UHGV virus genome: UHGV-0018639
Source of the DNA: a virus
Direction: 5' to 3' (one strand)
Length of the DNA stretch: 64,000 bases
The notes beneath the pieces were generated by a model, which was not told the origin of the DNA, did no database searches, and saw only the letters and a program-made list of their open reading frames with translations. Positions 10,598 to 51,068 of the stretch are shown here, one piece after another (positions within the stretch are counted from its first letter, which is position 1; every line of letters begins with the position of its first letter). A program made the position numbers and the translations under genes.

Positions 10598-10718
10598 ATC
10601 CACACCTTTTATTATAATTATATAAAATATTTTGGGTTACGCTTTTAGCATAATCCATTTTTTTTATTTTTTCAAGTTTTTGAAAATTGCTTATCCATTG
10701 GATTTTATGAAAAAAAAT

Positions 10719-10758
10719 TTGATTTTTCAAAAAAATGATGATATAATAAATGTATAAA
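10719..10758 (+). promoter_or_regulatory. class-II promoter (TTGATT-N17-TATAAT + ATAAATG)
   Basis: -35 at 10719-24, -10 at 10742-47. Confidence 0.6.
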
Positions 10759-10772
10759 ATGAGAAAGGAGAT

Positions 10773-12125
10773 ATGTCAATGGTTAAAGTAGGATTGCGTT
10801 TTCTTGATAAAAATAATGACATTGGTAATAAAACATATTGGTATATTGTAAAAGATAAAAAGGTTTGGGCGGATTTAAATAAGGCCGCAATGATAAGCAT
10901 TTCGACTCAAAATTCAACGGCATTTAAAATTACAAATGAGACTGGATACGGATATAGAGATGCTTGGGTTGTTTGGGTTGATATTGATACAATAAAAGAG
11001 GGCGATGAAAAAGAACTCGTTGCTATAAGTGAAATTAGAGGATATGATGAAACAAGACCCAGAAAGAAGGTTTCTTTTCCTGTTTGGGGGATTTGTAGAA
11101 CAAATAGACCTGAGTGTTATGATAATTGTTTTTCCGAGCCTGTGTCGTATAACTTTGATGCCTCTTTAAATGATTCTGCTATAAGTAATGGTACATTTTA
11201 TCTTAATACTCCTGACAGTTATAAACCGCTCAAGGTTTCATTTGATGGTTCAATGTCTAATACGACAAACACTTGCGAGTCAGAGAATTCCAAACTTCAA
11301 TCTGTTTTTGCCAGCTCTAATACTACTTGTACACTAACTAATACTCTCACGACGTCTAATCTTGAAGACTTGAAAAATTTGATTTATAAAGAAAATTCAT
11401 CTATAATAAATATACAAAATAAAAAGGAGAAAAATGAAATGAATATGAAAATTTTTGATACCCAGTTTGGTAAAGTTGATGATGTAGCAATGTCCATTTA
11501 TGGCGCAACCTTCAAGACCGTTGGCACTGATGGTCTTGCGCGTTCTATCGCATATGATCCAAATACTCAGGAGTATATTGACGTCCCCAATGAGATGATT
11601 ATCGCAAAAGGCTCTTATTGCTATGCTATGCCTTGCACTGCTGATAATCTTCATATTGGCGAGTATATTCGTCATAATGGCGCATGGGCACGTGTAATTG
11701 ATGTTGATGATGCCGCGCGCATCGTTGTTGAAAAGATTGCTACTCGTGAGGTTGCAACCATTCTTCCCGTGCGTTCTATTTTTGGCTATTCGTTTTACAC
11801 TAAGCTTATTACGCCGTTTCAGAGTGGCTTTATGACGGCTGACGCAGAACATCCTTTCGGCAATATTCTTCCACTTCTTATGATGGGTGATGGTAAGATG
11901 GATGAAATGCTTCCGCTAATGTTTATGATGGGTCAGGGTAGTACCGCTCAGTTTGATATGTCAAACCCTATGATGCTTATGATGTTTATGGGTGATAAGA
12001 CTGATAAGGACTCTGATATGTTCAAGATGATGATGATGGCTTCTCTGTTTAATCAGGTGAAGTCCAAGTCTGACGCACATTTTTGTGAGTGTGATTGCTG
12101 TGATACAGAAAGGAAGTCTTACTAA
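10773..12125 (+). CDS. hypothetical two-domain protein with Met-rich C-terminal tail
   Basis: 450 aa. It has a low-complexity Ser/Thr/Asn linker containing an in-frame AAGGAG+ATG, and a C-terminus of MMGDGKMDEMLPLMFMMGQG...MMMMASLF. Confidence 0.55.
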   Translation: MSMVKVGLRFLDKNNDIGNKTYWYIVKDKKVWADLNKAAMISISTQNSTAFKITNETGYGYRDAWVVWVDIDTIKEGDEKELVAISEIRGYDETRPRKKVSFPVWGICRTNRPECYDNCFSEPVSYNFDASLNDSAISNGTFYLNTPDSYKPLKVSFDGSMSNTTNTCESENSKLQSVFASSNTTCTLTNTLTTSNLEDLKNLIYKENSSIINIQNKKEKNEMNMKIFDTQFGKVDDVAMSIYGATFKTVGTDGLARSIAYDPNTQEYIDVPNEMIIAKGSYCYAMPCTADNLHIGEYIRHNGAWARVIDVDDAARIVVEKIATREVATILPVRSIFGYSFYTKLITPFQSGFMTADAEHPFGNILPLLMMGDGKMDEMLPLMFMMGQGSTAQFDMSNPMMLMMFMGDKTDKDSDMFKMMMMASLFNQVKSKSDAHFCECDCCDTERKSY

Positions 12126-12595
12126 TGGATAGCCGTATTCAGTATTCAGTTGACTATGAAAATGGGGTTGTACTTGCTCGGTTCAATCCCGATGAAATAA
12201 TGGACGATCTTCTCAAGGAAACAATGTATCTTTCAAATAAGATGAATAATATAAATTTCCGCTGGAATAAGATTTTTGAATTATTTGAAAAGTTTCGCAA
12301 GGATAATAAGACGTCTCTTGATAATCTATGTAGCAAGGCTAAGTGCAATATGGATGCCGGTGATAAGTTTGACCTTGAGGTCGGTAAAGGGCTTGCGAGG
12401 CGTAGGCTTCTCGTCAAGGTAGCATCACTGCGCGCACGTTGGTTTTGGACACTTGAAATGGCAATGATGGATAACCTGTTCCGTCTGATGGATAGATATT
12501 GTCATCATCAGCAAATTGCTTGCGACTATGATGAGGAACTTGTCAATTATACTCTGTCCGGTGAGTTTTGCTCTGACCACGAACCGAAGTTCTGA
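12125..12595 (+). CDS. hypothetical protein (156 aa)
   Basis: ORF track entry, ATGA start/stop overlap. Confidence 0.5.
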   Translation: MDSRIQYSVDYENGVVLARFNPDEIMDDLLKETMYLSNKMNNINFRWNKIFELFEKFRKDNKTSLDNLCSKAKCNMDAGDKFDLEVGKGLARRRLLVKVASLRARWFWTLEMAMMDNLFRLMDRYCHHQQIACDYDEELVNYTLSGEFCSDHEPKF

Positions 12596-12609
12596 AAGGA
12601 GTGAGTGCT

Positions 12610-13149
12610 ATGCGAATTGCAAAGAACTTAGATAATTATGACTATACGAATCGACTGAAAATCCGTAACCTTGATAATACTGATATGCTTGATTTCAATT
12701 GCGGCGGAGCTGCTTTGATGACGTTCGATGGATTCGTTCCTGACCATGAGCGTGATTCGTATGAAGAAGGCATTGACGACGATATTGAAATGGGGCTTGA
12801 GTCTTGGGAAGTCATTGACAGACTTCTTTGGCGCGATGTTGATGAAATGCTGCATCTTTTTGCAGGTCGTCTTCGACTGGCTGACGCGGGAGAACAGCCG
12901 CAAGAAAATGAACGTCTTATCGCATATCGCGTAGCACTCTCTTATGAAGAAGATGATGGTTGTGGCACGCTGATTGATACTGACTTTCACTTTAAGTATA
13001 TGGATAGTGATGGGCAGTGGTATCAAAAAAGAGGTTTCTTCAACCCGATTGAGAAGTGTGATTTGTCTGCTGATTCAATTTGGGAATGTGGGCCTTTGTG
13101 CCCGCCTTATACATCAGATATTGTGTTTATGATGCTTACGAAAATTTGA
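12610..13149 (+). CDS. hypothetical acidic protein (about 179 aa)
   Basis: ATG 8 nt after AAGGAG; the ORF track's 12601 is an alternative start. Confidence 0.5.
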   Translation: MRIAKNLDNYDYTNRLKIRNLDNTDMLDFNCGGAALMTFDGFVPDHERDSYEEGIDDDIEMGLESWEVIDRLLWRDVDEMLHLFAGRLRLADAGEQPQENERLIAYRVALSYEEDDGCGTLIDTDFHFKYMDSDGQWYQKRGFFNPIEKCDLSADSIWECGPLCPPYTSDIVFMMLTKI

Positions 13150-13185
13150 TTTTCTTTCAGATTTTTTATATAATATATATAGAAA
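13146..13185 (+). promoter_or_regulatory. class-II promoter TTGATT-N17-TATAATATATATAGAAAG
   Basis: -35 at 13146-51, -10 at 13169-74, conserved ATATATAGAAA downstream. Confidence 0.7.
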
Positions 13186-13205
13186 GTTGAGAGAGGAGCT
13201 TGAAA

Positions 13206-13499: not shown

Positions 13500-13777
13500 A
13501 AACTTGGTTTATGTATCGAGAGAATCCAGATGGGAAATTTACAATAGTTCCTATTTATAAAAACTTTGGTGAAGATTGGAAAATAATGGGATCTTGGGCG
13601 GTGCTTCCCGCACGGCTGTTTGGATTGAGTTGGGCCGATTATCTGCGTTATTGCAGACAGTGCGGCGCCGATGTGCGAGGTAAGGCGCACCAGTATCCTA
13701 TTATTGCGTGGGATAAGAAGAATGATGAGTTCTTGAATGAGTTGAATAAGCGCGCGAATGAGTTGATTAAAATTTGA
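13496..13777 (+). CDS. hypothetical protein (about 93 aa)
   Basis: ATG after GGAAGGAG; overlaps the previous stop (ATATGA). Confidence 0.5.
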   Translation: MKTWFMYRENPDGKFTIVPIYKNFGEDWKIMGSWAVLPARLFGLSWADYLRYCRQCGADVRGKAHQYPIIAWDKKNDEFLNELNKRANELIKI

Positions 13778-13813
13778 TTTTGGCTGAAATTTTTTGTATA
13801 ATATATACAGAAA
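13774..13813 (+). promoter_or_regulatory. class-II promoter driving tRNA-Leu(TAA) and the SPFH gene
   Basis: TTGATT 13774-79, N17, TATAAT 13797-802, ATATACAGAAAG. Confidence 0.7.
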
Positions 13814-16365: not shown

Positions 16366-16375
16366 ACCCACATAT

Positions 16376-16464
16376 GCGGGATGAACTCAGACGGCTCTGA
16401 GACCGGTCTTGAAAACCGTGGGCAGGTGAAAGCTTGTGGGGATCGACACCTCCGTCCCGCGCCA
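16376..16464 (+). tRNA. tRNA-Ser (anticodon TGA), type II
   Basis: Anticodon arm CCGGT-CTTGAAA-ACCGT is near-identical to E. coli serT. Long variable arm, T-loop ATCGACA, GTCCCGC-G-CCA. Confidence 0.7.
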
Positions 16465-16736: not shown

Positions 16737-17858
16737 ATGAAATTAACAGAAAAGGGGGTTGCCGCGTTTGCCGCAGCGTTAGAGCACTGCCCCAATGAAT
16801 CTTTTTCAGCGGCCAGCCTTTCAGCAAAGTGCGGCGCCTCTATTTCTGCAGCTACACTCAATGGTATTGTCAATCAGGGACTTATGACTCGACTTGGTGG
16901 TTCGCCTGTCAAGTTTGAATTAGTGCCTAACGCGAAAGACTTGTATAGCAAGGCGCGCGAAGATAAGCCAGCCAACGAAAATCTTCGTAAAGCACAGGCC
17001 GCGAAAAATGATGAGTTTTATACTCGGTATCAGGATATCGAAAAAGAAGTCTTACAGTATGACTTGCGTGGCAAAAAGATTCTGTGCAATTGCAATGATG
17101 GGTTAGATAGTGAATTTACAAATTTCTTTATGGCAAATTTTGAAGCACTTGGACTCGCCGAAGTCGTTTGTCTGAGTTATGAGAAAGAAAAGCTTGCTTT
17201 CAAAACGGTTAGGCGCACACCCACAAAGCCCGATATAAAAGTTGAAGTAGCACGGATTCCCCTTAAAGGAAACGGGGCTTTTGATTCATGCGAAGGTCGA
17301 GAAGCTTTAGCGGCCTGTGATGTTGTTATCACTAATCCGCCGTTCAGTCGGTTTCGTGAATTTGTCAATTTGATTTTGTCTTACAAGAAAGACTTTTTGA
17401 TAATTGGCAGTAAAAACGCTATTACTTATAAAGAGTTCTTTCCTCTTCTAATGAATGGCAAAGTTCATATTGGCAATTATAATGTTTCTACTTTTAAACA
17501 GCCCGATGATACTGAGAAGAGATTTGGAAACATTGGTTGGTTTACGACCCTTCCTGTCGCAAAGGCCACACAGCCAATTCCTTTAACAGCAACCTACGAT
17601 TCCGTCAATTATCCTGCCTATGATAATTTTCATGCAATCGAGGTAAGCCGCACAGCTAACATTCCAAAAGATTATGATGGTGTGATGGGCGTTCCTATTT
17701 CATTCCTTGATAAGTTTTGTCCTACTCAATTTAAAATTGTTGGATGGAGCAGACATAATGATGAAGGAATGGACGGCGGATATTGGACGGGCGGTTGTGC
17801 AGATGCTACTATAAATGGTAAACGAGTTTATCGTAGAATTTTGATTCAGAAAATTTGA
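16737..17858 (+). CDS. N6-adenine DNA methyltransferase (NPPF motif)
   Basis: Motif IV VVITNPPFS with a SAM-binding region upstream. About 373 aa from the ATG 7 nt after GGAGG; the track's 16668 start would overlap tRNA-Lys. Its stop codon lies inside the -35 box of the next promoter. Confidence 0.7.
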   Translation: MKLTEKGVAAFAAALEHCPNESFSAASLSAKCGASISAATLNGIVNQGLMTRLGGSPVKFELVPNAKDLYSKAREDKPANENLRKAQAAKNDEFYTRYQDIEKEVLQYDLRGKKILCNCNDGLDSEFTNFFMANFEALGLAEVVCLSYEKEKLAFKTVRRTPTKPDIKVEVARIPLKGNGAFDSCEGREALAACDVVITNPPFSRFREFVNLILSYKKDFLIIGSKNAITYKEFFPLLMNGKVHIGNYNVSTFKQPDDTEKRFGNIGWFTTLPVAKATQPIPLTATYDSVNYPAYDNFHAIEVSRTANIPKDYDGVMGVPISFLDKFCPTQFKIVGWSRHNDEGMDGGYWTGGCADATINGKRVYRRILIQKI

Positions 17859-17894
17859 TTTTTATCAAAATTTTCGATATAATATATATAGAAA
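17855..17894 (+). promoter_or_regulatory. class-II promoter (its -35 contains the methyltransferase gene's TGA stop)
   Basis: TTGATT 17855-60, TATAAT 17878-83, ATATATAGAAAG. Confidence 0.7.
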
Positions 17895-18026: not shown

Positions 18027-18100
18027 CGGGGATGTGGTGTAATGGTAGCACACTTGATTTGGGGTCAAGAAGAGTGGTTCAAATCCAACATTTCCGGCCA
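18027..18100 (+). tRNA. tRNA-Pro (anticodon TGG)-like, irregular stems
   Basis: Perfect anticodon arm CTTGA-TTTGGGG-TCAAG, D loop TAATGGTAG, T loop GGTTCAAATCC, 3' GCCA. The acceptor and D stems cannot both be made canonical. Confidence 0.5.
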
Positions 18101-18107
18101 TAAAAAT

Positions 18108-18194
18108 GCTGAGTTCCCATAGTGGTCGATTGGAGCGGTTTTGTAAGCCGCAGACTTCGTGTCCGCATCAGTTCGAATCTGATACTCAGCTCCA
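18108..18194 (+). tRNA. tRNA with anticodon TGT (Thr-like) and an unusual long variable arm
   Basis: Perfect acceptor GCTGAGT/ACTCAGC-T-CCA, anticodon arm GCGGT-TTTGTAA-GCCGC, T arm ATCAGTTCGAATCTGAT, and a 15-nt variable arm. 87 nt. Confidence 0.6.
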
Positions 18195-18198
18195 CTAT

Positions 18199-18274
18199 AA
18201 GAGAGTAGCCCAATAGGTAAGGCAGCAGTCTCCAAAACTGAAGATTAAAGGTTCAATTCCTTTCTCTCTTGCCA
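18199..18274 (+). tRNA. tRNA-Trp (anticodon CCA)
   Basis: AAGAGAG..CAGT-CTCCAAA-ACTG..AAAGGTTCAATTCCTTT..CTCTCTT-G-CCA. Confidence 0.8.
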
Positions 18275-18316: not shown

Positions 18317-18356
18317 TTGACTTTTTCAAAAAATCTTGATATAATATATACATAAG
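18317..18356 (+). promoter_or_regulatory. class-II promoter driving ORF-free region A
   Basis: TTGACT 18317-22, N17, TATAAT 18340-45, ATATACATAAGATAAAG. Confidence 0.65.
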
Positions 18357-19089
18357 ATAAAGAAAAGAAAAAGTCAAAAGGAGGACGATGCTAGTGCCAC
18401 CTACACGTGGTATCCTCTGTTTTCGCTAAGAGCGCTGGCATATATTCAATTAAATAATACTAACTCAGTGAAGACGGAATTCGATGTTCCGGCTGAGAAA
18501 TTCTAGCTAGCACAGCAGAAACGAAACAAGGATACTTGTGGATACTGGACTGGGAGGCCATCGAGAGATGAGCCGAAGTAGAGCGGTTGCTCAAGTGGGA
18601 AGAAGAGCAGGAATTGTGCTGAGTGAATCGCAAGTAAACGCAGCCGTGGAGTGGCGGGCGCAATAGATAGCTTGGTGAATAGCCAAGCCGAATCCAAGTT
18701 AGGTTTTAGTTGGTGACTGTGACAATCCTTGGAAAAGCCAATAAGCTCGTTCCGTTGAGACGACAGGGAATGTGAAATCTGTCTTTGACACTCTACAGTA
18801 TCCGAGTAGCGGAACACAACGGGGACTTTAGATTAAAAAGATGTTGACAGTAATAGAAATTACTACTTTCTGAACATCCCGTGAAAGGTAGAGGTAATCA
18901 ATCCTCTGGCGGATTAGGCGACATTAGACACTTGGGGTTATCCAAGACTAACAAGTCAATGTTGTTGCTGGGGTAAGAAGTGTATGGGCGACGGCCTGTA
19001 TGCTCAGACTTATCTCCCGCGTGGCAGAATATGCTTGAAGGTTTATCGAGGTAGGGCGAAGGCCCAGTAATATTTAGTTGGATTTATAT
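18346..19089 (+). ncRNA. ORF-free transcribed region A (candidate structured RNA) between a class-II promoter and tRNA-Met
   Basis: About 745 nt with no ORF of 60 aa or more on the sense strand. GC is higher than in flanking DNA. It opens with AAAGGAGG plus a 13-codon ORF (MLVPPTRGILCFR) and ends in a tRNA followed by a terminator. Confidence 0.35.
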
Positions 19090-19162
19090 GGCAGGAAGAG
19101 AAGGTTCTCCGTTTGGCCTCATAAGCCAGACTTCGTAGGTTCGATTCCTACTCCTGCAACCA
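19090..19162 (+). tRNA. tRNA-Met (anticodon CAT), non-canonical, initiator-like
   Basis: Anticodon arm TTGGC-CTCATAA-GCCAG, T arm GTAGGTTCGATTCCTAC, TCCTGCA-A-CCA. G1-A72 mismatch, shortened D arm, terminator hairpin directly after. Confidence 0.6.
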
Positions 19163-24318: not shown

Positions 24319-24323
24319 AAACT

Positions 24324-24362
24324 TGATTTTCGACGAAATTTTCGTTATAATAAATTGTAAAA
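24324..24362 (+). promoter_or_regulatory. class-II promoter variant
   Basis: TTGATT 24324-29, N16, TATAAT 24346-51. Confidence 0.55.
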
Positions 24363-34609: not shown

Positions 34610-34641
34610 GACACTCCTGTTTATCAGGAGTGTCTTTTTTA
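34610..34641 (+). terminator. intrinsic terminator after the endolysin
   Basis: GACACTCCTGTTTATCAGGAGTGTC followed by TTTTTTAT. Confidence 0.8.
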
Positions 34642-34648: not shown

Positions 34649-34689
34649 TTTGATTTTTTTGAAACGATATGTTATAATATATATAGAAA
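34649..34689 (+). promoter_or_regulatory. class-II promoter
   Basis: TTGATT, N18, TATAATATATATAGAAAATGAG. Confidence 0.65.
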
Positions 34690-35693: not shown

Positions 35694-35733
35694 TTGATTT
35701 TTCACAAAATTTTAGCTATAATATATATAGAAA
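35694..35733 (+). promoter_or_regulatory. class-II promoter
   Basis: TTGATT 35694-99, N17, TATAAT 35717-22, ATATATAGAAAATGA. Confidence 0.7.
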
Positions 35734-37215: not shown

Positions 37216-37255
37216 TTTGATTTTCTCTCAAATTTTATGTATAATATATATAGAA
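37216..37255 (+). promoter_or_regulatory. class-II promoter driving a tRNA and ORF-free region C
   Basis: TTGATT, N17, TATAAT 37239-44, ATATATAGAAAGTGAG. Confidence 0.7.
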
Positions 37256-37272
37256 AGTGAGAGAAAGATATG

Positions 37273-38275: not shown

Positions 38276-38310
38276 CTATATTTCTTTTTTATATTTCCTT
38301 TTCTTAGAGT

Positions 38311-38345
38311 CCCGCGTAGATTAGCTACGCGGGATTTGATTTTTT
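38311..38345 (+). terminator. intrinsic terminator after tRNA-Glu
   Basis: CCCGCGTAGATTAGCTACGCGGG followed by ATTTGATTTTTT. Confidence 0.65.
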
Positions 38346-38375
38346 AAAGAATTTTTATTATAATATATATAGAAA
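38336..38375 (+). promoter_or_regulatory. class-II promoter
   Basis: TTGATT 38336-41, N17, TATAAT 38359-64, ATATATAGAAAGTGA. Confidence 0.7.
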
Positions 38376-38696: not shown

Positions 38697-38711
38697 AAAA
38701 GGAGAACTTCA

Positions 38712-39696: not shown

Positions 39697-39697
39697 T

Positions 39698-40245: not shown

Positions 40246-40350
40246 TGTAAAGCAACAATACCATCTGCTGGGGTGTATTTCAAAAATATTTTGATAAGAA
40301 TTATAGATATCGCCAATATATGGTTGGGCTTTGGAATAGGAGGGTTGACA

Positions 40351-40674: not shown

Positions 40675-40918
40675 CTATATTGAACGTAAAGTTGTTAAGG
40701 AGCTACTCAATATTAACTATGGCGGCTATCTTGATGCCGTAGATCGTATCCCTGCTGCAGACGTTGTCCCGGTGGTGCATGGGCGGTGGGCGCATCTTGG
40801 CGGAGACGAATGGTGTTGTTCTGCTTGTGGCTTTGTTCTTACCACTGAGGGTAGCTGGGATAAGCCTACTAAAAAATACTGCGAGGATTGCGGCGCGAAG
40901 ATGGATGGAGACAAATAA
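40667..40918 (+). CDS. zinc-ribbon protein (C-terminal CxxCGAKMDG), paralog b
   Basis: ...VVHGRWAHLGGDEWCCSACGF...YCEDCGAKMDGDK. Confidence 0.5.
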   Translation: MADYIERKVVKELLNINYGGYLDAVDRIPAADVVPVVHGRWAHLGGDEWCCSACGFVLTTEGSWDKPTKKYCEDCGAKMDGDK

Positions 40919-41092
40919 ATGACACGTAAGAAATTTATGAAACTTTGTATGGCTAATTTTGGCTATTCTCGAAATGAGGCTGAGGAATCGGCCAGTCATA
41001 TTATTGAACTCAATAAAAATTATATTGCCTCATATAAAGAAAGATATAATTTTATTTTAAGGCTTCGCCAGTCAAGGGAAATGTTTAAATGA
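40919..41092 (+). CDS. small hypothetical protein (57 aa)
   Basis: ORF I found by eye, MTRKKFMKLCMANFGYSRNEAEE...; TAAATG junction. Confidence 0.35.
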   Translation: MTRKKFMKLCMANFGYSRNEAEESASHIIELNKNYIASYKERYNFILRLRQSREMFK

Positions 41093-41134
41093 TGCACTTT
41101 GTATGATAAAAGGAAATGTATCAAGGAGGAATTA

Positions 41135-41440
41135 ATGAGTAAATGTAATTGTTATCACGAAAGGTCAGAACGTAGATATATTTTTAATACTTTTACTGGG
41201 ATACCAGAAACCTCATATCTTAGCACATATGGAGTCTGCTATGGCACAAAAGAATGTGATGTGTGCGGCTGTGAAGGTGATGAAACTAAATGTAGTTTCT
41301 ATCCTGAAAAGCGCGAAAAAGCCATTCAAGCTAATACTATGGCTTTTGAAAAACCAGCGTGTGTTAACTGCCCATCTAATCCTAAGAATGGTGGAGATGG
41401 AATTTGTTTTTGTATCTTGGGACAAGATTTGATTTATTGA
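41135..41440 (+). CDS. Cys-rich hypothetical protein (about 101 aa)
   Basis: ATG after AAGGAGG; CNCYHERSE...CDVCGCEGDETKC...CVNCPSN. Confidence 0.5.
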   Translation: MSKCNCYHERSERRYIFNTFTGIPETSYLSTYGVCYGTKECDVCGCEGDETKCSFYPEKREKAIQANTMAFEKPACVNCPSNPKNGGDGICFCILGQDLIY

Positions 41441-41448
41441 GGTAAAAT

Positions 41449-41613
41449 ATGAAACAAACAATTGAATTAAATGCAAAAGATATCGAGCGGCTAATTGCAA
41501 AAGAGTTTAATGTTAAAGAAGAGCAAGTAATTGTCTCGCTCGGTAAAGTATATAGTGGAGATGGAATTGGCGAGAATAAGGATTATAAGATTTATGCTAT
41601 TGTGAATAAGTAA
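41449..41613 (+). CDS. small hypothetical protein (54 aa)
   Basis: ORF I found by eye, MKQTIELNAKDIERLIAKEF... Confidence 0.35.
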   Translation: MKQTIELNAKDIERLIAKEFNVKEEQVIVSLGKVYSGDGIGENKDYKIYAIVNK

Positions 41614-41633
41614 CTTTGGAATGAGGTGTAAGT

Positions 41634-41882
41634 ATGATTTGTTATCATTGTAAAAATGTAGACGCTTGTCCTTTATTTAGACATGCGTATTCTATGTCTG
41701 AAGATTTTGAGATTCTCAAATGCAAGAATTATGATGAAGTAAGTAAATATAAATACAGACTTATTGCGAAGAATGACGATCTTTTGCATTTAATTTATGA
41801 TTACTTTACAGATAACGTTAGTGGAGAGCATAGTGACGAAGAAGTAAAAGAAGCAATTACAAGTGCTATATGGAGTTTGTGA
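41634..41882 (+). CDS. hypothetical protein (82 aa)
   Basis: ORF track entry. Confidence 0.5.
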   Translation: MICYHCKNVDACPLFRHAYSMSEDFEILKCKNYDEVSKYKYRLIAKNDDLLHLIYDYFTDNVSGEHSDEEVKEAITSAIWSL

Positions 41883-41892
41883 GGCGAAAGTT

Positions 41893-42249
41893 ATGACAGA
41901 AACAATAAACTGTGTATATGAAACCCCTTGTGAATGGTGTTCAAAATGGGACAAGAAGTGTGATAAAAAGGCACCAGAGCGCGGGCAAAGAGTCAAGTGT
42001 CATCCTATTGATGATGCATTCGCTAATAAAATGTGCCAATCAGAATTTGATCACGAATGGGTATGTATTGGAATATCTACGGTAGGAACGGAATATATAT
42101 GTAGAAAATGCTTTGCTCGAAAAAATATTATGTATGAATTAGGGACAGAGGGTATTCCAACACTGACTACTACAACCGCAAAACAAGCGGCTTGTGTCAA
42201 TTATTTAGTAAATACAAAAAATGATGGAGAAAAGAAAGTAGATAGATGA
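41893..42249 (+). CDS. Cys-rich hypothetical protein (118 aa)
   Basis: ATG after GAGG; CVYETPCEWCSKWDKKCD... Confidence 0.5.
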   Translation: MTETINCVYETPCEWCSKWDKKCDKKAPERGQRVKCHPIDDAFANKMCQSEFDHEWVCIGISTVGTEYICRKCFARKNIMYELGTEGIPTLTTTTAKQAACVNYLVNTKNDGEKKVDR

Positions 42250-42386
42250 CAAGACTTGAATGTGCAATGGAACTTTTGAAGATATATCATAGATATGATT
42301 ATCCTAATTTGGAGGATACGAAAGCAATTGCCTATGCGATTATGGAAATTGGTAAAAGTGAGCTAAGAGAAGAAATAAAAGATTAA
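42246..42386 (+). CDS. small hypothetical protein (46 aa)
   Basis: ATGA overlap; MTRLECAMELLKIY... Confidence 0.35.
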   Translation: MTRLECAMELLKIYHRYDYPNLEDTKAIAYAIMEIGKSELREEIKD

Positions 42387-42483
42387 GCTGGCAAGATAAA
42401 ACAAGGTAATAGCGCGAACTATTGTAAAATTTGAAAAATGATATTTGACAAATCAATATTTTATAATATAATGACAATACAAA

Positions 42484-42590
42484 ACTAAAGTTCCACACAT
42501 AATAAGTTAAATTTATCAATTGACTTAGAAGCGTGGAACTTGTTTTTTTATAAAAATTGAGTTATAATATATATAGAAAATGAGGAAAAG
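42484..42590 (+). repeat. terminator-promoter cassette copy 1
   Basis: Inverted repeat GTTCCACAC...GTGGAAC, then CTTGTTTTTTTATAAAAATTGAGTTATAATATATATAGAAAATGAGGA. About 85% identical to copies 2 and 3. Confidence 0.65.
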
Positions 42591-42603
42591 GAGATTAGAA
42601 ATT

Positions 42604-42951
42604 ATGAATGAACATTTGGAGAACATTATATACTCAATCAATCATGCGGTGGCTAAAGCGGCGATTCATCGGTCGAATGGACTGAAACCTGAAGATACCA
42701 CCTACCATCGTGGGATAGATATCGCATATGACCTTCATTCAATATGCGAAATTATCAATAAAGACGCTGGCGAAGATTTTGTGGGAGTGGAAGCAACAAA
42801 AGTTTACGAAGTAGAGTTTTTCGATATGCACGACGATTCTTTCGGTAATACAATTCAAGGCAACAAATCTACTATTTGTATTGGGATGTTGCCTCTTATC
42901 AGATATAAGAATGATGGAATACGCGGTGCGTGGTATATTTATAAGGATTGA
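42604..42951 (+). CDS. hypothetical protein (115 aa)
   Basis: First gene after terminator-promoter cassette 1. Confidence 0.5.
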   Translation: MNEHLENIIYSINHAVAKAAIHRSNGLKPEDTTYHRGIDIAYDLHSICEIINKDAGEDFVGVEATKVYEVEFFDMHDDSFGNTIQGNKSTICIGMLPLIRYKNDGIRGAWYIYKD

Positions 42952-42962
42952 GAGGGCTGTAA

Positions 42963-43466
42963 ATGAAAATATTACTCTTTTTGCTGGGTTTCGCTGTGGT
43001 TTTTGCTATTGCTGTAATAGCAATAGCAAAAATAGTAAACTACTTCCGCGGTAAGCGGCCTGTTGATTACGAATATACACTTGAGAAGATCAAAGTCTTT
43101 TTAGATTTTTCTACTTTTAAGTCTTTTTATCTCGCGGCACCAGAAAATTTCAATCTTAAAGATGAAACTGTCTATTTTAACGAGAAGGGTTATGGAAGTT
43201 CAAGTTATCGTACTCGTATAGGGTTCAAAACACTTGCTGACTTGTGGGCCTATCAGGATTGGAAAGAGGAGATTGACTCCAAAAAAGAGAATGCTGAAAA
43301 TGATGAAGCAACCCTCAAATTTTGTCAGTCAATGACGCGCGTTTTGGAAAAGAAAAAGCAGGCTGAACTCAAGAAAGCACAGAACGCTGCGCAAGATAGT
43401 ATCAATATTATTGACAACCTTATGAGAGAAGAGCGTCCTTTACCGCCACGACAGATTCAATTTTAG
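42963..43466 (+). CDS. membrane-anchored hypothetical protein (167 aa)
   Basis: N-terminal TM helix LLFLLGFAVVFAIAVIAIA. Confidence 0.5.
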   Translation: MKILLFLLGFAVVFAIAVIAIAKIVNYFRGKRPVDYEYTLEKIKVFLDFSTFKSFYLAAPENFNLKDETVYFNEKGYGSSSYRTRIGFKTLADLWAYQDWKEEIDSKKENAENDEATLKFCQSMTRVLEKKKQAELKKAQNAAQDSINIIDNLMREERPLPPRQIQF

Positions 43467-43478
43467 GAGGTAAATAAA

Positions 43479-43718
43479 ATGTTCCAAAATTTTTACAAGT
43501 GCGAGTATGGACACGGCTTGTGTAAAGCTCCAGAGACACAGTGCCCGCACTGGCAGGGTGTATTCTGTGAGTTAGACGAACAGAGAAAAAGGTCTATTTC
43601 TCAGGAACATTTTGTGCGGGATTGCCATAAATGTGTTTATGAACTTGTATGTGATGGTAATCCTGTAGATTGTAAGAAATATAGGAGAGACGCGCTGGAT
43701 GGAGGGTATTATGGATAA
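43479..43718 (+). CDS. Cys-rich hypothetical protein (79 aa)
   Basis: ORF track entry. Confidence 0.5.
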   Translation: MFQNFYKCEYGHGLCKAPETQCPHWQGVFCELDEQRKRSISQEHFVRDCHKCVYELVCDGNPVDCKKYRRDALDGGYYG

Positions 43719-44031
43719 GTATAATTTTCTTGAGGCGAAAGATGCTATTTTTAGACTTTTGGCCGACTACTGCATACCTATTGAAAAAGATGGGGTATAT
43801 TATATGTCTCATAAATATCACAGCTCCTATCAAAAGGCTTTTCAGGCTCTTGGCATAGAGCAGGATGAAGTTCCACTTATGGATTTTTGTCAGATGTGGG
43901 AAGAGAATAACCGTGATACTTGGGGTCTTTGGAACTTCGGATATATTTATTATGGAGCAACCGCACAGATGTATTATGATACAATTGTTGAGAATTATCT
44001 TGCGCGAGTTGATGGAGTGGAGGATGACTGA
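43711..44031 (+). CDS. hypothetical protein (about 106 aa)
   Basis: Start at MDKYNF. Confidence 0.5.
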   Translation: MDKYNFLEAKDAIFRLLADYCIPIEKDGVYYMSHKYHSSYQKAFQALGIEQDEVPLMDFCQMWEENNRDTWGLWNFGYIYYGATAQMYYDTIVENYLARVDGVEDD

Positions 44032-44208
44032 TGGGCGGCGAAGAAATACTTTGGCGCAATACTTATAGAATGAGTCATTGTATTGATTGCCCAAATTCAT
44101 TGTGTGGGCGTTGCACTGATGATATGATAGTTTGTCAGTGGCGTAGGCTTTTGGATAACTTGGGAGATTGGTTTGAAAGTGAGGAGAATAAAAATGAGTC
44201 TAACTGAA
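44032..44208 (+). CDS. small Cys-rich protein (about 58 aa, coordinates +/-1)
   Basis: ORF I found by eye, MGGEEILWRNTYRMSHCIDCPNSLCGRCTDD... Confidence 0.3.
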
Positions 44209-44547
44209 TATGCATCAATTGACGAAATCAAGCGTTGCTTAGAGGACGCTTGTGAGCCTTTTCTCGTAAGCCCACTTAGCGCTTGGAACGGCCATTGCCT
44301 TTATGAGTGGTATGACATAGAGAACATTTTGGACACGGCGTCTACGGTTGATTTGACGGACAGTCGCGCGAAAGGTGAGTGGCTTGACTTGGACAAGAAT
44401 TTTGAAACAAAGCATCCGCCTCTCGCAATATGTAGTTGTTGTGAGAGTGCAAACTATGTCAATGCCATTCGTCTCAAAGATAAGGTAAGAATACTGACAA
44501 GATTCTGCGGACGTTGCGGCGCGGAATTGGAATATAAGGGGAATTAA
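44194..44547 (+). CDS. zinc-ribbon hypothetical protein (about 117 aa)
   Basis: ...CSCCESANY...CGRCGAELEYKGN. Confidence 0.5.
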   Translation: MSLTEYASIDEIKRCLEDACEPFLVSPLSAWNGHCLYEWYDIENILDTASTVDLTDSRAKGEWLDLDKNFETKHPPLAICSCCESANYVNAIRLKDKVRILTRFCGRCGAELEYKGN

Positions 44548-44549
44548 AA

Positions 44550-44879
44550 ATGGCGTGTAAATATTTTGATACAGTAAAAAAGCAGCATTATGTCTATGAT
44601 CGTGTGAATGGTTCGTTCAGCGGCCAGATTGCGGATATGGAATATTATGTCTGCAAAGCCACAAACGACCGTGCAATCTGCACGTGCGGCGGTTGTGTAG
44701 ATAAGTGCGATTATTATAGGCCGAGTGCAGTCAAGCAATTGGAAGCGCTAAGTATCAGTCGAGATGCAATTAATCTGCTTTATCATGATGGAATCATTGA
44801 TGAGGAAGATAATGATGCGCTGAATATCGTATGGCGGTGTGCTGAGCGAGAGATAAGGAGTGCCGAATGTCTGGAATGA
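44550..44879 (+). CDS. Cys-rich hypothetical protein (109 aa)
   Basis: ORF track entry. Confidence 0.5.
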   Translation: MACKYFDTVKKQHYVYDRVNGSFSGQIADMEYYVCKATNDRAICTCGGCVDKCDYYRPSAVKQLEALSISRDAINLLYHDGIIDEEDNDALNIVWRCAEREIRSAECLE

Positions 44880-45211
44880 CGATTCTTACACAACATCCGA
44901 TTGTTGAATATGCTGGACAAGTTTGGGTTGTTTTGGCAGCTATTGCTTTTAGTCTTACAGTTAGTTTTTTGATAGTGGCGCTAATTTGTCGTTCGACCGA
45001 ATCCTTGGGTCTGTGTGTTATTTTTCTTCTTGCTCTTTTCGCTTTTTGTGTGATTGGAAAAGTGCATTATAAAGAAGTCGAAACTGGCCGCTATGAATAT
45101 CAAGTTCTTCTTGATGAAACCTGCGACATAAACGAGCTTGCCTCCCACTATGATATAATAGGTCAAGACGGTCTAATCTGGACAATTCAAGATAAAGAAC
45201 CCATTGAATAA
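44867..45211 (+). CDS. membrane protein (114 aa, 2 TM)
   Basis: Hydrophobic N-terminal half. Confidence 0.5.
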   Translation: MSGMTILTQHPIVEYAGQVWVVLAAIAFSLTVSFLIVALICRSTESLGLCVIFLLALFAFCVIGKVHYKEVETGRYEYQVLLDETCDINELASHYDIIGQDGLIWTIQDKEPIE

Positions 45212-45216
45212 ATTTA

Positions 45217-45311
45217 TTAGTTCCGCACACTTTTAAGTTGAACTTATCATTCTACTTAGAGGGCGCGGAACTTGTTTTTTTATAAAAATTACGTTATAAT
45301 ATATATAGAAA
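45217..45311 (+). repeat. terminator-promoter cassette copy 2
   Basis: GTTCCGCAC...GCGCGGAAC, then CTTGTTTTTTTATAAAAATTACGTTATAATATATATAGAAAATGAG. Confidence 0.65.
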
Positions 45312-45325
45312 ATGAGAAAGGGAGT

Positions 45326-45760
45326 ATGAATAAAATGAAGATTTGGAGTGTTAGTGTTCCGAATACGTTCAATGGACTGAGCAATACTTCTTTGTTTATA
45401 AATGAAGAAGATGCTAAGGATAAATTCAATAGGTTCAAAGACCGTGGCGCGACGATGGGGCAGGTTGATGACATTTGGAATTTCTGTGCGCGCAATTTTG
45501 ACGATGTTCTTATTGATGTGATTGAATCGTTCTATGATGAGCGTGGTCGTTTCAATCCAGGGAAAGAAACTGAGGATGGCGAGTCTATTGACATTGACAG
45601 CGCGCTGATGGATGTATGTTATGATGTATTTGGAAATTCGGATTATTTCAATGTTGATACTCATTGGGGTGATGACTATAGTAGCCGCTGCTTTATCGCA
45701 GTAAGCTGGAATTGTGAGGGCGAAAATCGCCTGTTCACCGATGTGGAGTTAATAGACTAA
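45326..45760 (+). CDS. acidic hypothetical protein (about 144 aa)
   Basis: First gene after cassette 2; start at MNKMKIW after GGGAG. Confidence 0.5.
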   Translation: MNKMKIWSVSVPNTFNGLSNTSLFINEEDAKDKFNRFKDRGATMGQVDDIWNFCARNFDDVLIDVIESFYDERGRFNPGKETEDGESIDIDSALMDVCYDVFGNSDYFNVDTHWGDDYSSRCFIAVSWNCEGENRLFTDVELID

Positions 45761-45761
45761 G

Positions 45762-46001
45762 ATGTTAGTTGATGATGTAGTTCAGAATGGATATGAGGTT
45801 TGCGCCTTTACTTTTTTCAATAATTCGTGTGAGGCAATTGGCGAAGAATTTTTGGAATGCTTCGATGCTATGGCGTTCAAAGCTCATTTTGGATTTCAGT
45901 TTCGCGTAGCATTATACAATTGGGATAATGAATACTACATTGTGCTGTTTCGTGATGGGATAGCTGTTGAAGCACATAAGGAGGAAAAGAAAAATGGATA
46001 G
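45762..46001 (+). CDS. hypothetical protein (79 aa)
   Basis: ORF track entry. Confidence 0.45.
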   Translation: MLVDDVVQNGYEVCAFTFFNNSCEAIGEEFLECFDAMAFKAHFGFQFRVALYNWDNEYYIVLFRDGIAVEAHKEEKKNG

Positions 46002-46191
46002 GACAAATGATTGTTCGAGATTTCCCAAACTTCTGATGCGGTATGGCAATAGGATGCATCGTATTGATGTGACTGATAAGGATAATCATTCCATTGAGGT
46101 AAGTGTGTGGGATCTGGATGGAGAGATATTTCTGATGAAGCGCACAGATGGCGGCGTTGATATATGTGAGAAAATTGGGATGAGGATGTGA
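45994..46191 (+). CDS. hypothetical protein (about 65 aa)
   Basis: Start at MDRTNDC. Confidence 0.4.
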   Translation: MDRTNDCSRFPKLLMRYGNRMHRIDVTDKDNHSIEVSVWDLDGEIFLMKRTDGGVDICEKIGMRM

Positions 46192-46195
46192 ATAA

Positions 46196-46678
46196 ATGAG
46201 TAAACTTGGTTGGATTTGTTTGATAAGATTTGATGATAAAGGAGACGCGTCTAAGGATATATTCCCTGTGGTTTATGAAAATAAAACTTATTGGTGGTGT
46301 AAGCGTTATGGGTCTGATATGATTACTTTTTATGTAAAACCTGACATTGCTTATCAAGACCCTTATATCGGTAAAGTGTTAACTTACACTGAATTTTTCA
46401 ATTTTTATAGGACATCACCACATCCTAAGAATAAATCTTATCTTGTATATGTCGCGGGGAATGAACAGAAAAATTTCTCTTGGATAAAGACACGCTTGCC
46501 TGCTGAGAGAAAACTTGAAAAAACTCTTGCTGATATTGAAAGATATAACAGGCAGCTAGGCGCATATGAACGCCAAAGAGATAATACGATAAGAGAGATT
46601 GAAAAGCTTGAGCTTTCTCTTAAACAAGCCAAGGAAGAGTTGGAAGAACTGGAGAAGGAGGTCGCGCAGAATGAGTAG
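46196..46678 (+). CDS. hypothetical protein with C-terminal coiled coil (160 aa)
   Basis: ORF track entry. Confidence 0.5.
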   Translation: MSKLGWICLIRFDDKGDASKDIFPVVYENKTYWWCKRYGSDMITFYVKPDIAYQDPYIGKVLTYTEFFNFYRTSPHPKNKSYLVYVAGNEQKNFSWIKTRLPAERKLEKTLADIERYNRQLGAYERQRDNTIREIEKLELSLKQAKEELEELEKEVAQNE

Positions 46679-47938: not shown

Positions 47939-47978
47939 TTGAAATTCCTCAAAATTTTTGCTATAATTATTATAGAAA
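47939..47978 (+). promoter_or_regulatory. class-II promoter variant (TTGAAA-N17-TATAAT)
   Basis: TATAATTATTATAGAAAATAAGG. Confidence 0.5.
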
Positions 47979-49016: not shown

Positions 49017-49106
49017 TACGGTTCCCGCACAAGTAAGTCTTTTTGTAGGACAGAAAGTGCGGGAACTTGTTTTTTTATAAAAATTGAGTTATAATATATA
49101 TAGAAA
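49017..49106 (+). repeat. terminator-promoter cassette copy 3
   Basis: GTTCCCGCAC...GTGCGGGAAC, then CTTGTTTTTTTATAAAAATTGAGTTATAATATATATAGAAAATGAGGAG. Confidence 0.65.
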
Positions 49107-49123
49107 ATGAGGAGGGAAGTAAA

Positions 49124-49348: not shown

Positions 49349-49350
49349 GT

Positions 49351-49506
49351 AATGAAAGAGAATTTATCCAAGTCTGAAACAGCAATGCCGCACGATCAGT
49401 TAGCTCAGTGGTGCGCGCTCCGTAAGAAATGCCAGAAATTCACAAACAAGAAAACTTACACGCGGAAAGAGAAACATCGTAAGCGAATTGAAGATAGCGA
49501 AGCTTG
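49351..49506 (+). CDS. small basic protein (51 aa)
   Basis: ORF I found by eye, MKENLSKSETAMPHDQLAQWCALRKKCQK... Confidence 0.3.
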
Positions 49507-49543
49507 AAAAAATAAAAAATTTTTGATATAATATATATAGAAA
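49504..49543 (+). promoter_or_regulatory. class-II promoter (TTGAAA-N17-TATAAT)
   Basis: -10 at 49527-32, ATATATAGAAAGTGAGG. Confidence 0.6.
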
Positions 49544-49556
49544 GTGAGGGAAGAGA

Positions 49557-50114
49557 ATGAAACATTACAAGATTTACGGCGCGACTTGCTACAGTTTTGA
49601 AGCTCCAGTAGGCAAAGACCAGATTGTCAGAGTTGAATTTATGCCGGAGGAGGACGATACGGAGGACGTTTCGACTTTCTATATTGGGCTGCTCGTTTAT
49701 GATAAGCGCAAACGCAATCATGCCCTTAATCGCTGGATTGGCCTTGTCAATTTGGATGAAGATGGGTATGTGCGTGGCGATGAATATCCGATAACTGGAA
49801 AACATCAGTTTGAAACCTTTGCTGTCGCACGCAAGCTATTTCTTGAAGGAATTGAAAATGTGCGGCATATGTATTGTTCTTCTTCTCTTACCTTTATTGT
49901 TGGAACGAGCGAGGAAAAACGCGCGCGAGTGTATGATAGATTTTTGAGTCGTTATGGATGGCGGGCGCATGGTGCCAATGATTACGCCGCTCAGTTTGGA
50001 TATAGTTGGAAATGGAGTAAGTATTACCTTCCCAAAGGCTGGGATGAGTTTTTGGAATGTGAAAACAGTTTGGCTAAAAAGGAGAATGAGTATGTTGAAC
50101 TCGCATTTGATTGA
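49557..50114 (+). CDS. hypothetical protein (185 aa)
   Basis: Class-II promoter upstream. Confidence 0.5.
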   Translation: MKHYKIYGATCYSFEAPVGKDQIVRVEFMPEEDDTEDVSTFYIGLLVYDKRKRNHALNRWIGLVNLDEDGYVRGDEYPITGKHQFETFAVARKLFLEGIENVRHMYCSSSLTFIVGTSEEKRARVYDRFLSRYGWRAHGANDYAAQFGYSWKWSKYYLPKGWDEFLECENSLAKKENEYVELAFD

Positions 50115-50150
50115 AACCGCATCTGAACGAAATAAGATTGGAGTAGCAAG

Positions 50151-50471
50151 ATGATAAATGAGTCTGAAAGATGTTATACGGCAGCTGAAGTTGGTAATAT
50201 GATTTCTACCGTTGAATGGCATTATGGTGATGAATGGGGACCGAATGGAATTACGGCACTAGAGGATATGCTAGGTATTGATCATTTTGGTGATGAAGTA
50301 GCTGAATGGGCGCGCACTGACCATTCGCCGCAAGGTTATATTAGTATCAGTGAATTGCTCAAAAAGATGATAGAAATTAAACAGCAAGATTTGGATGTAA
50401 AAAACTTTGTAAAAATATTGACGACTTGGGTTCTAACAAACCAAGATAACACGGTGGTGATAATGAAATGA
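50151..50471 (+). CDS. hypothetical protein (106 aa)
   Basis: ORF track entry. Confidence 0.5.
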   Translation: MINESERCYTAAEVGNMISTVEWHYGDEWGPNGITALEDMLGIDHFGDEVAEWARTDHSPQGYISISELLKKMIEIKQQDLDVKNFVKILTTWVLTNQDNTVVIMK

Positions 50472-50926
50472 CAAGGGAAGTCCGAGAAGTCCTCGCGGAG
50501 GCCCTCGCAATCGCATCTGCATTATTGCTATTTTCTACCCTTGCAGTTTGTCTAATAATGGCAAGTCGCGGCGGGCAGCCTGAAGAAAAGAATTGGCTTG
50601 TTCAGTCATGGGCACAGGTTCAAGGCGTTTGGGAAAGTGAGTCTTATACCGATCAGAATGGTGAGATACATTCATTAGCTTATAGTGAAATGCACGAACT
50701 AATAATAAGTGGAGATTCAATTGTTTCAACTTATTGTGGTAGTTCAAACACTGGCCGCATTTGGCTGTGGGCGATTGACGATGAAACATATATTTATCAT
50801 ACGACTATTGGCTTGACAATTGGATTTACAAAAGATACCTTTGGTGCGACGCCTGATGGTGGAAATGTTGTATGGTATTGCCGCGCGAGTGAGTCAGAAA
50901 TTGGATTTGAGATGTCTAATAAGTAG
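50468..50926 (+). CDS. membrane-anchored hypothetical protein (152 aa)
   Basis: N-terminal TM ALAIASALLLFSTLAVCLIMA. Confidence 0.5.
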   Translation: MTREVREVLAEALAIASALLLFSTLAVCLIMASRGGQPEEKNWLVQSWAQVQGVWESESYTDQNGEIHSLAYSEMHELIISGDSIVSTYCGSSNTGRIWLWAIDDETYIYHTTIGLTIGFTKDTFGATPDGGNVVWYCRASESEIGFEMSNK

Positions 50927-50961
50927 GGCGAGCGTCCAAATGAAAATTATAAGTTGAAAAT

Positions 50962-51001
50962 TTGATTTTCTCTCAAATTTTCGATATAATATATATGTAA
51001 G
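50962..51001 (+). promoter_or_regulatory. class-II promoter
   Basis: TTGATT 50962-67, N17, TATAAT 50985-90, ATATATGTAAGATAAAG. Confidence 0.65.
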
Positions 51002-51068
51002 ATAAAGAAAGAAACAAAACAAAAACAAATGGCGCGTGCGGCCCTACCGACGAGAAGGAGAAAATAGA

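Follow-up and report, generated by a model that had tools for sequence, protein, structure and literature searches.

The plus strand of a 64,000-nucleotide stretch of the virus genome UHGV-0018639 (the window, meaning throughout the whole stretch that was analysed) carries 16 copies, or 17 counting a weak one at 24323, of an element with the consensus TTGATT-N17-TATAAT-ATATATAGAAA. They constitute a genuine, clearly bounded family of probable host-polymerase promoters, a kind that has long been known from the phages T5, T4 and SPO1. The best explanation for the family as a whole, held here at a probability of about 0.8, is that the copies are promoters for the primary-sigma RNA polymerase of the host (sigma-A/sigma-70 type) and that they head short non-structural units. 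The promoter of the chromosomal 6S RNA gene (ssrS) in bacteria of the Ruminococcus flavefaciens group is identical to the phage element from -35 to +5, reading TTGATT-N17-TATAATATATATAGAAA. Since the host transcribes its 6S RNA without any phage, and from the same sequence between -35 and +5, recognition is presumably by the unmodified sigma-A holoenzyme. For the phage copies themselves, the sequence suggests use by that unmodified holoenzyme, a start at the predicted +1 A seven bases after the -10 box, high strength and early timing.

Composition and conservation of the promoter family

The motif scan for the 40-bp consensus that the original prediction had proposed was run as a pattern search and with a position weight matrix (PWM), and the family was recovered far above shuffled sequence. 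The pattern search of the window found 11 exact occurrences of the 17-mer TATAATATATATAGAAA, where 0.04 would be expected by chance. The 40-mer TTGATT-N17-TATAATATATATAGAAA gives 14 matches with at most three mismatches, where shuffles give an expectation of 0.00; these matches are all plus-strand and fall between 10719 and 50962. The PWM was trained on the 11 exact (core) copies, and the window was scanned with shuffled sequence as the control. It returned exactly 16 plus-strand sites, the number that had been predicted (all those of Table 1 except 24323, which is a weaker seventeenth), with scores of 40-77 bits against a shuffle maximum of -7.7.

The 17-bp spacer and perfect -10 box ascribed to the plus-strand copies were confirmed in 16 of 16 PWM sites, and all 17 sites fit TTGnnn-N17-TATAAT, with a -35 that agrees with TTGACA at three to five of its six positions (four for TTGATT). 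Other parts of the description proved too strict. The 11-nt extension, which had been called invariant, is exact in only 11 of the 16 copies and differs by one to four bases in the other five. TTGATT is the -35 hexamer in ten copies, but TTGTTT (three), TTGAAA (two) and TTGACT (one) account for the rest, and the tail (A/G)TGAG directly follows the extension in six copies, with a one-base variant or an insertion in the others. Sites 50962 and 18317 carry a separate '...(G/A)TAAGATAAAG' flavour of the extension. The three minus-strand copies placed at about 3920, 6340 and 10130 do exist in the left arm (at 3948, ~6397 and 10182); they are looser, however, and are joined by a fourth at 3097, two of the four having TATACT in place of TATAAT. 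Every copy points the same way as its genes.

From 120 related phage stretches, 522 TTGNNN-N17-TATAAT sites (non-redundant) were collected, and the anatomy of the element was read from their information profile. Beyond the fixed bases, information resides at -32 to -27 (ATTTTT), at -23 to -19 (an A-tract), at T-17, T-15 and G-14 (the Gram-positive TRTG motif at -16), and at -6 to +5 (ATATAT|AGAAA); it then declines over a purine-rich tail to about +18, and none is seen upstream of -36. When +1 is taken as the purine seven bases 3' of the -10, as was done for all the predicted start positions given here, the 11-nt extension resolves into an AT-rich discriminator, ATATAT, and the first five transcribed bases, AGAAA, and the predicted +1 is a purine in all flavours seen. 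The TRTG motif at -16 is partial across the motif loci (T-17 in 79-95%, T-15 in 82-92% and G-14 in 44-59%), and the TG before the -10 is present in only some of the window copies and in the host 6S promoters. A second stereotyped flavour, TATAAT-ATATAT-GTAAG-(A/G)TAAAGAAAG, with a +1 G, is common in these phages; it is carried by site 50962, and a close form of it by 18317.

Parts of the window are matched at 81-90% identity by three IMG/VR contigs 126-132 kb in length (3300045988_159535, _158127 and _159271). At orthologous sites in these relatives, the spacers change and the flanking DNA, even the downstream tRNA, has diverged, whereas -35, -10, discriminator and leader (to +17) persist; at 37217, the promoter is retained through +17. 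The persistence of the motif while flanks and tRNA diverge therefore indicates purifying selection on a promoter, and not recent copying alone. More widely, the exact pattern of 23 specified bases was found in at least 120 stretches on at least 104 distinct other IMG/VR contigs. Among the matches listed, the motif-bearing contigs are mostly 60-200 kb long (longest 402 kb), the GC content of the motif-bearing stretches is 27-49%, and other DNA similarity to the window is seen in four of the 120 stretches. Two composition-matched shuffles of the 11-nt extension retrieved 0 and 0 stretches from the same collection.

Twelve sites lie 18-29 nt 5' of a start codon preceded by a Shine-Dalgarno (SD) sequence, and three (13774, 17855 and 37217) lead into tRNA genes, the copy at 13774 heading an array of tRNAs and open reading frames (ORFs) that extends to about 17858. 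The copies at 13774, 18317 and 37216 had been described as firing into tRNA genes or ORF-free regions; tRNAs are indeed among the targets, but the supposedly ORF-free ones are RNA genes, namely tRNAs and ROOL RNA. The region 34.6-51 kb holds ten copies, which are surrounded by small ORFs mostly without a Pfam hit, and the PWM scan found no family copy in the tail-fibre/endolysin (lysis) block at 24.4-34.6 kb, which follows the weak site at 24323. The -35/17/-10 geometry, the co-orientation with genes, the short distance to an SD and ATG or to a tRNA, the absence from this block and the conservation of the motif alone thus together argue that the copies are promoters.

The match to the host 6S RNA promoter

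The exact motif was searched for in one genome per prokaryotic species. Among the matches listed, it occurs chiefly on contigs of metagenome-assembled genomes of gut and rumen Bacillota, many of which resemble binned phage DNA with tRNA arrays. At 12 or more loci in genomes of the R. flavefaciens group, including those of the isolates MA2007, ND2009 and SAb67, the exact motif stands directly upstream of an Rfam 6S RNA, and the neighbours of this locus are housekeeping genes (HtrA, an HD hydrolase, a short-chain dehydrogenase and NrdD/NrdG). As a control for ascertainment, metagenome 6S loci were fetched by a 23-mer internal to 6S, regardless of their promoter. The exact TTGATT-N17-TATAATATATATAGAAA is present at 11 of the 15 loci obtained in this way, and the remaining four are off by one to three bases.

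Apart from their identity between -35 and +5, the host ssrS promoter and the phage copies share the T-run after the -35 and the TG before the -10. Yet the host promoter belongs to a chromosomal single-copy gene, it has its own conserved region upstream of the -35 (TTTTACATAGATTTGCTA) that is not found in the phage copies, and its leader after +5 differs from the phage leaders. Other promoters in 218 kb of host DNA are of the same style (TTGATTTTT, TRTG and an AT-rich discriminator), with none having the exact extension. No 6S-like RNA was detected by nhmmer downstream of the motif in phage loci, and a 6S-like start in contig L203 was discarded as a candidate, having no Rfam match. The 6S gene itself holds a promoter-like sequence, TTGTTC-N16-TATAAT, near its 5' end (6790-6817 in contig L165), which is present in every R. 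flavefaciens-group copy seen.

On the host-polymerase explanation, the element would consist of TTGATTTTT (the -35 and its T-run), a 17-bp A/T spacer with an A-tract and a partial TRTG -16 motif, TATAAT, ATATAT and a +1 A, after which a purine-rich initial transcribed sequence (AGAAA R TGAG...) would lead into the SD sequence. Each copy would head a short unit of small ORFan genes, a tRNA array or ROOL RNA, and several copies, being fused to an upstream terminator hairpin, would form insulated cassettes. The extension would be conserved as part of the optimum of the host polymerase, providing easy melting, a purine start and efficient escape, and the host of this virulent phage would be a gut or rumen member of the Bacillota.

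A more specific proposal, which is considered improbable, is that a broad range of phages from gut and rumen Bacillota took over the 6S promoter in particular, or converged on it and not on a generic strong promoter, as one that may still be fully active in slow-growing, 6S-loaded and nucleotide-poor cells, and that the +1 A (AGAAA) and +1 G (GTAAG) flavours tune their units to the ATP and GTP pools. If this were true, the motif, as a mimic of the 6S promoter, would represent a strategy for infecting near-stationary gut bacteria as well as a host-prediction marker for uncultured phages.

Known early promoters and alternative explanations

The early promoters of T4, and those of the host-takeover module of SPO1, are present as many copies served by the host sigma factor, have a consensus that is tighter and longer than that of the host, and drive small early genes; T4 additionally ADP-ribosylates RNA polymerase through Alt, thereby favouring its own early promoters. 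The window family differs from both in its consensus, and no Alt-like factor was identified here. A closer sequence comparison is offered by PN25 of T5, the sequence of which was verified as 100% present in the T5 record; the record annotates it as 'putative early promoter T5P33' and labels the segment from -10 to +17 'repeat c copy 6'. In ungapped register, the 13146 copy and PN25 agree at 41 of 65 positions, where the background is 20.3 +/- 3.9. Like the window family, PN25 is a repeated strong host-polymerase promoter of a tRNA-rich virulent phage, and like the 13146 copy it has a 17-bp spacer with AAAATTTT, TATAAT, an A start and a purine-rich initial transcribed sequence, the two sharing the 12-mer TTGAGAGAGGAG at +7 to +18. 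They differ in the discriminator, which is AGATTC in T5 and not ATATAT, and in the host, E. coli as opposed to Bacillota. To our knowledge, no identity between T5 early promoters and a host 6S promoter has been described. Because the phages and their hosts are unrelated, the likeness is taken to be convergent and not homologous. The transcribed region affects the strength of such promoters (Kammerer et al. 1986, as cited in PMC12464699), and escape from the promoter is favoured when the initial transcribed sequence is rich in purines (PMC12464699).

A further comparison concerns the putative terminator hairpins. Five of the 17 copies have a hairpin upstream and the other 12 are without one. 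At 38336, 42540, 45272 and 49067 a strong hairpin (z -2.5 to -4.7) extends as far as the TTG of the -35, and the T-run that follows (TTGATTTTTT or TTGTTTTTTT) is predicted to be able to act as a terminator U-tract as well. Since the T-run of the -35 region would thus double as the U-tract of the hairpin, the modules can be regarded as insulated terminator-promoter cassettes. Three of these copies (42540, 45272 and 49067) are 90-95% identical over 40 nt, from the spacer to +10, and share a related hairpin and a TTGTTTTTTTATAAAAATT block of -35 and spacer. In PMC2839356 and PMC4122927, the PeSLs (promoter-early stem-loops) of T4-type phages are described as small composites of a strong sigma-70-like early promoter and a terminator-like stem-loop, repeated in plastic regions rich in ORFans, with an SD and start codon at the 3' end, and as mediating module shuffling. 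The window family resembles them in the five hairpin-bearing copies and in its concentration among small ORFan genes. However, only 5 of the 17 copies have a hairpin, and this lies upstream, abutting the -35, whereas a PeSL figure legend puts the hairpin at the -10 box or overlapping it. The comparison is one of sequence layout.

What is new here is the exact identity with a host 6S promoter, the occurrence of the 40-bp element across some 100 otherwise dissimilar gut and rumen phage contigs, and the assignment of a promoter to ROOL RNA. The family defines a transcription-unit map of an uncultured large phage, suggests a promoter for ROOL RNA, an RNA of still unsettled function and expression, and offers a 40-bp candidate for a strong promoter in Ruminococcus and other Oscillospirales, a group that is genetically poorly tractable. 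The match between the phage and host ssrS promoters is a testable host-prediction signal for uncultured phages and raises a hypothesis on phage gene expression in slow-growing gut bacteria. Furthermore, a new phage sigma factor no longer needs to be invoked.

Such a factor had been put forward in the original prediction, in which it was suggested that the extended conservation could mark a phage-specified sigma or appropriator site, or else a shared 5'-UTR element. The extension ATATATAGAAA would then be the site for a phage sigma, a sigma appropriator or an RNA-polymerase modifier, without which the promoters would not be used. The unusual uniformity of the copies in comparison with host promoters would suit this explanation, as would a scheme in which the right-arm TTGACA class is the true host-only immediate-early class and the main family comes later; moreover, just part of the phage genome was inspected. 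It is nevertheless very unlikely, because the same element precedes the host 6S gene, which is transcribed without phage: the identical -35 to +5 sequence lies at the chromosomal gene in the R. flavefaciens group, three isolates included, and drives it in uninfected Ruminococcus genomes in a housekeeping context. The element also has a full sigma-A -35 and -10 with a TRTG motif, neither hexamer being replaced, and does not match known phage-factor boxes (TGCTT at -30 for T4 MotA, TATAAATA for T4 late promoters and AGGAGA for SPO1 gp28). No sigma factor or RNA polymerase, or ORF resembling either, was found among the approximately 30 ORFs scanned in the 64-kb window, the genome being of about 125-130 kb. 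An alternative that is unlikely, if less so, places the function in the RNA, with +1 to about +18 acting as a shared 5' leader (as a translation enhancer, or in RNase processing, stability or capping) and not as a promoter determinant. Information does last to +18, the leader AGAAARTGAGAGAAAGATATG is retained before tRNAs in three related phages, and two discrete leader flavours recur over many unrelated contigs. Yet the best-conserved part of the extension, -6 to -1, is not transcribed, a leader is not needed to explain -6 to +5, and the leader of the host 6S gene is divergent and of variable length past +5. In addition, the SD accounts for much of the purine richness, and the copies driving tRNAs and ROOL need no translation signal. 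A determinant for NAD capping in the context of the +1 A was considered and rejected, as the T at -1 does not fit the published consensus.

It is possible, although doubtful, that near-identity is kept mainly by duplication and recombination of mobile, PeSL-like terminator-promoter cassettes that shuffle modules of small genes, so that the element would be conserved as much for recombination as for its promoter function, a view that is compatible with use by the host polymerase. The five abutting hairpins, the near-identical trio with its related hairpin and shared block, and the precedent of T4-type PeSLs with this composition and role are all in keeping with it, as is the position of the copies amid ORFan modules that differ between relatives. 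Thus, one relative (L052) has 1.2 kb of extra DNA that ends 6-10 nt upstream of the 35694 promoter, and another (L017) is missing 38514-46377. However, the breakpoints in L017 lie inside genes and not at promoters, most copies have no hairpin, and the extra DNA in L052 does not begin with another promoter copy, for which reason a clean PeSL-type cassette insertion was rejected. Evidence for module shuffling at the cassettes is therefore thin. Furthermore, spacers vary freely while the -35, the -10 and -6 to +5 are fixed, which argues for selection on function and not for gene conversion, and the same core is found across about 100 contigs without other DNA similarity. That the repeats are sites for replication, packaging or protein binding and not promoters at all is scarcely credible: they are dispersed and AT-rich, and nothing specific favours such a role, which has to contend with the strict co-orientation, the fixed short distance to an SD and ATG or a tRNA 5' end, the canonical -35/17/-10 geometry and the same sequence at the host 6S gene. 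The iteron-rich, ORF-free region at 53.2-55.1 kb is, moreover, a better candidate for an origin.

Several observations do weigh against recognition by the host polymerase as the whole explanation. Conservation reaches about +18, also in copies that drive tRNAs, for which contacts with the polymerase alone are not obviously sufficient, and the initial transcribed sequence comes in two discrete flavours, AGAAA and GTAAGATAAAG. Compared with the handful of other promoters seen in the 218 kb of host DNA, the phage copies differ far less from one another; extra constraint on these copies, or their homogenisation by recombination, is possible. The search for a sigma-like gene covered 64 kb, and one could sit in the remainder of the genome. 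One tail-fibre protein is 46% identical (tblastn) to a protein of the Faecalibacterium phage FP_Brigit, and the host proposed for the window phage is tentative. Lastly, 6S was found among the matches listed and is not claimed to be the sole host gene with the exact motif.

Predicted transcription units and other features of the window

Table 1. Positions of the promoter copies, adjoining hairpins, second promoter class and ROOL RNA in the window (+1 positions are predicted).
Feature	Position	Strand	Remarks
Looser copy (TTGATT-N17-TATAAT-TAAAAAAGAAA)	3058..3097	-	Upstream of topoisomerase II gene 1174-3036
Looser copy (TTGATT-N17-TATAAT-ATAATAAAAGT; TATAAT ATAATAAAAG)	3909..3948	-	Originally placed at about 3920
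Looser copy (TTGACT-N17-TATACT-TATATATAGTAAG)	6357..6397	-	-35 within 3' arm of a hairpin; originally placed at about 6340
Looser copy (TTGAAA-N17-TATACT-ATATATAGTAAA)	10143..10182	-	Divergent from 10719 copy; originally placed at about 10130
Copy, variant extension (TATAAT AAATGTATAAA)	10719..10758	+	+1 10754; drives ORF 10779-12125; retained in relative L002
Copy, variant (TATAAT AAATATACAAA)	11379..11418	+	Within ORF 10779-12125; followed by SD and in-frame ATG 11439
Exact copy	13146..13185	+	+1 13181; leader AGAAAGTTGAGAGAGGAG; ATG 13206; 41/65 identical to T5 PN25
Copy (ATATACAGAAA)	13774..13813	+	+1 13809, 13 nt 5' of tRNA-Leu 13822
Exact copy	17855..17894	+	+1 17890; 137-nt ORF-free leader, then tRNA-Pro/Thr/Trp 18027-18274
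TAAG-flavour copy (TTGACT-N17-TATAAT-ATATACATAAG)	18317..18356	+	+1 18352, 88 nt upstream of ROOL RNA
ROOL RNA (RF03087, 268.9 bits), full-length	18440-19085	+	Target of 18317 promoter; abuts tRNA-Met 19085-19162
Weak seventeenth copy (TTGATT-N17-TATAAT-AAATTGTAAAA)	24323..24362	+	Upstream of ORF 24385-24711
Intrinsic-terminator hairpin and T-run	34610..34634	+	15 nt upstream of 34650 promoter
Exact copy	34650..34689	+	+1 34685; ATG 34711
Exact copy	35694..35733	+	+1 35729; ATG 35756
Exact copy	37217..37256	+	+1 37252, 20 nt 5' of tRNA-Pro 37272
13-bp hairpin	38307..38337	+	3' arm enters -35 of 38336 copy; TTTGATTTTTT is the U-tract
Exact copy	38336..38375	+	+1 38371; ATG 38400
Hairpin (AGTTCCACAC...GCGTGGAACT)	42488..42541	+	Abuts -35 of 42540 copy; z -4.7
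TTGTTT-subfamily copy, exact extension	42540..42579	+	ATG 42604
Hairpin	45219..45272	+	Abuts -35 of 45272 copy; z -4.6
TTGTTT-subfamily copy, exact extension	45272..45311	+	ATG 45335
Copy (TTGAAA-N17-TATAAT-TATTATAGAAA)	47939..47978	+	ATG 47999
Hairpin (GGTTCCCGCAC...GTGCGGGAAC)	49020..49067	+	Abuts -35 of 49067 copy; z -2.5
TTGTTT-subfamily copy, exact extension	49067..49106	+	ATG 49124
Copy with TTGAAA -35, exact extension	49504..49543	+	ATG 49557
+1 G-flavour copy (TATAAT-ATATAT-GTAAGATAAAGAAAG)	50962..51001	+	72-nt leader to ATG 51069
Second class, TTGAC[AT]-N17-TATAAT (TATACT at 56953), without ATATATAGAAA	56080..62605	-	Right arm (56-63 kb), outside the family; -35 starts at 56119, 56953, 57257, 58397, 59752 and 62605

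The position of the 18317 promoter upstream of ROOL RNA has counterparts elsewhere. On two other contigs a copy of the family lies 78 nt (L210) and 56 nt (L031) upstream of ROOL, and on two more (L041 and L068) ROOL is preceded by tRNAs. ROOL RNAs have been found near tRNAs and in phages, and their co-transcription with tRNAs has been suggested (PMC5737381), a remark with which the presence of a family promoter or of tRNAs 5' of ROOL in several contigs is in agreement. The copy at 50962 simply precedes the ORF at 51069, and an Rfam scan of 50.5-55.5 kb at a permissive threshold gave nothing credible. The promoter inside the 448-aa ORF 10779-12125, together with its SD and ATG (11379-11441), is also kept in L002, and the transcript predicted from it may give a shorter C-terminal isoform; the ORF has no match in Pfam or PHROG. 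The second promoter class of the right arm serves small genes, and some host promoters are similar to it, such as a tRNA promoter in contig L250. This class and the main family may differ in timing.

The window is part of a large virulent phage of about 125-130 kb. Its genes include those for the large subunit of topoisomerase II, a UvrD-like helicase, a DNA ligase, an RNase H, a dNMP-kinase-like protein, ClpP, an intron-split PhoH, an EcoRI-type methylase, tail-fibre and baseplate proteins and a GH25 endolysin, in addition to 16 tRNA genes, and its SD sequences are strong and of the AAAGGAGG type. This gene content, the tRNAs and the strong SDs point to a host among the Bacillota. A megablast of 34-39 kb against GenBank phages found no close relative, and tblastn of proteins against GenBank gave merely distant topoisomerase matches besides the tail-fibre match.

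A tRNA-Sec-like match just below threshold (46.2 against 47 bits) and an odd ARAGORN tRNA of undetermined anticodon were noted at 16375-16461 (+) and 37653-37722 (+). Two group I introns (RF00028) are present on the plus strand. That at 21444-21662 (88 bits) splits the PhoH-like gene (21139-21459 / 21678-22211), and that at 33145-33494 (65.8 bits) begins inside the 3' end of the GH25 endolysin ORF (32213-33208). The ORF-free region 53200-55100 contains seven copies of an iteron, CTATAAGTTAACTGA, with a 24-bp period (53785-54071), as well as many TTCCAAAAATTTGGAA palindromes. It is located at a switch of GC skew and gene strand, just past the gene for a helix-turn-helix protein (52328-53179), and is likely, judging from these features, to be a replication origin or a regulatory hub. 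Three tail-fibre genes in a row contain a repeat of 60 nt (72-77% identity) that encodes the motif GKGLS(S/T)NDYT (27892-27951, 29325-29384 and 30341-30400), which suggests modular, paralogous receptor-binding proteins.

Further observations were made on other motif-bearing contigs. In L144 (about 4870-5055, minus strand) and L192, the exact motif is predicted to drive an ORF-free transcript of about 140 nt with no Rfam match, which ends in an intrinsic terminator and contains a tRNA T-arm-like GGTTCAAGTCC; an ORF that is integrase-like by eye then follows. This transcript may be a new small RNA or the remnant of a mobile-element att site. In L141, a contig with an 11-tRNA array, a tRNA with the anticodon CTA (an amber suppressor, called 'Pyl') lies at 4081-4155 and hints at recoding of TAG in some phages of the group.

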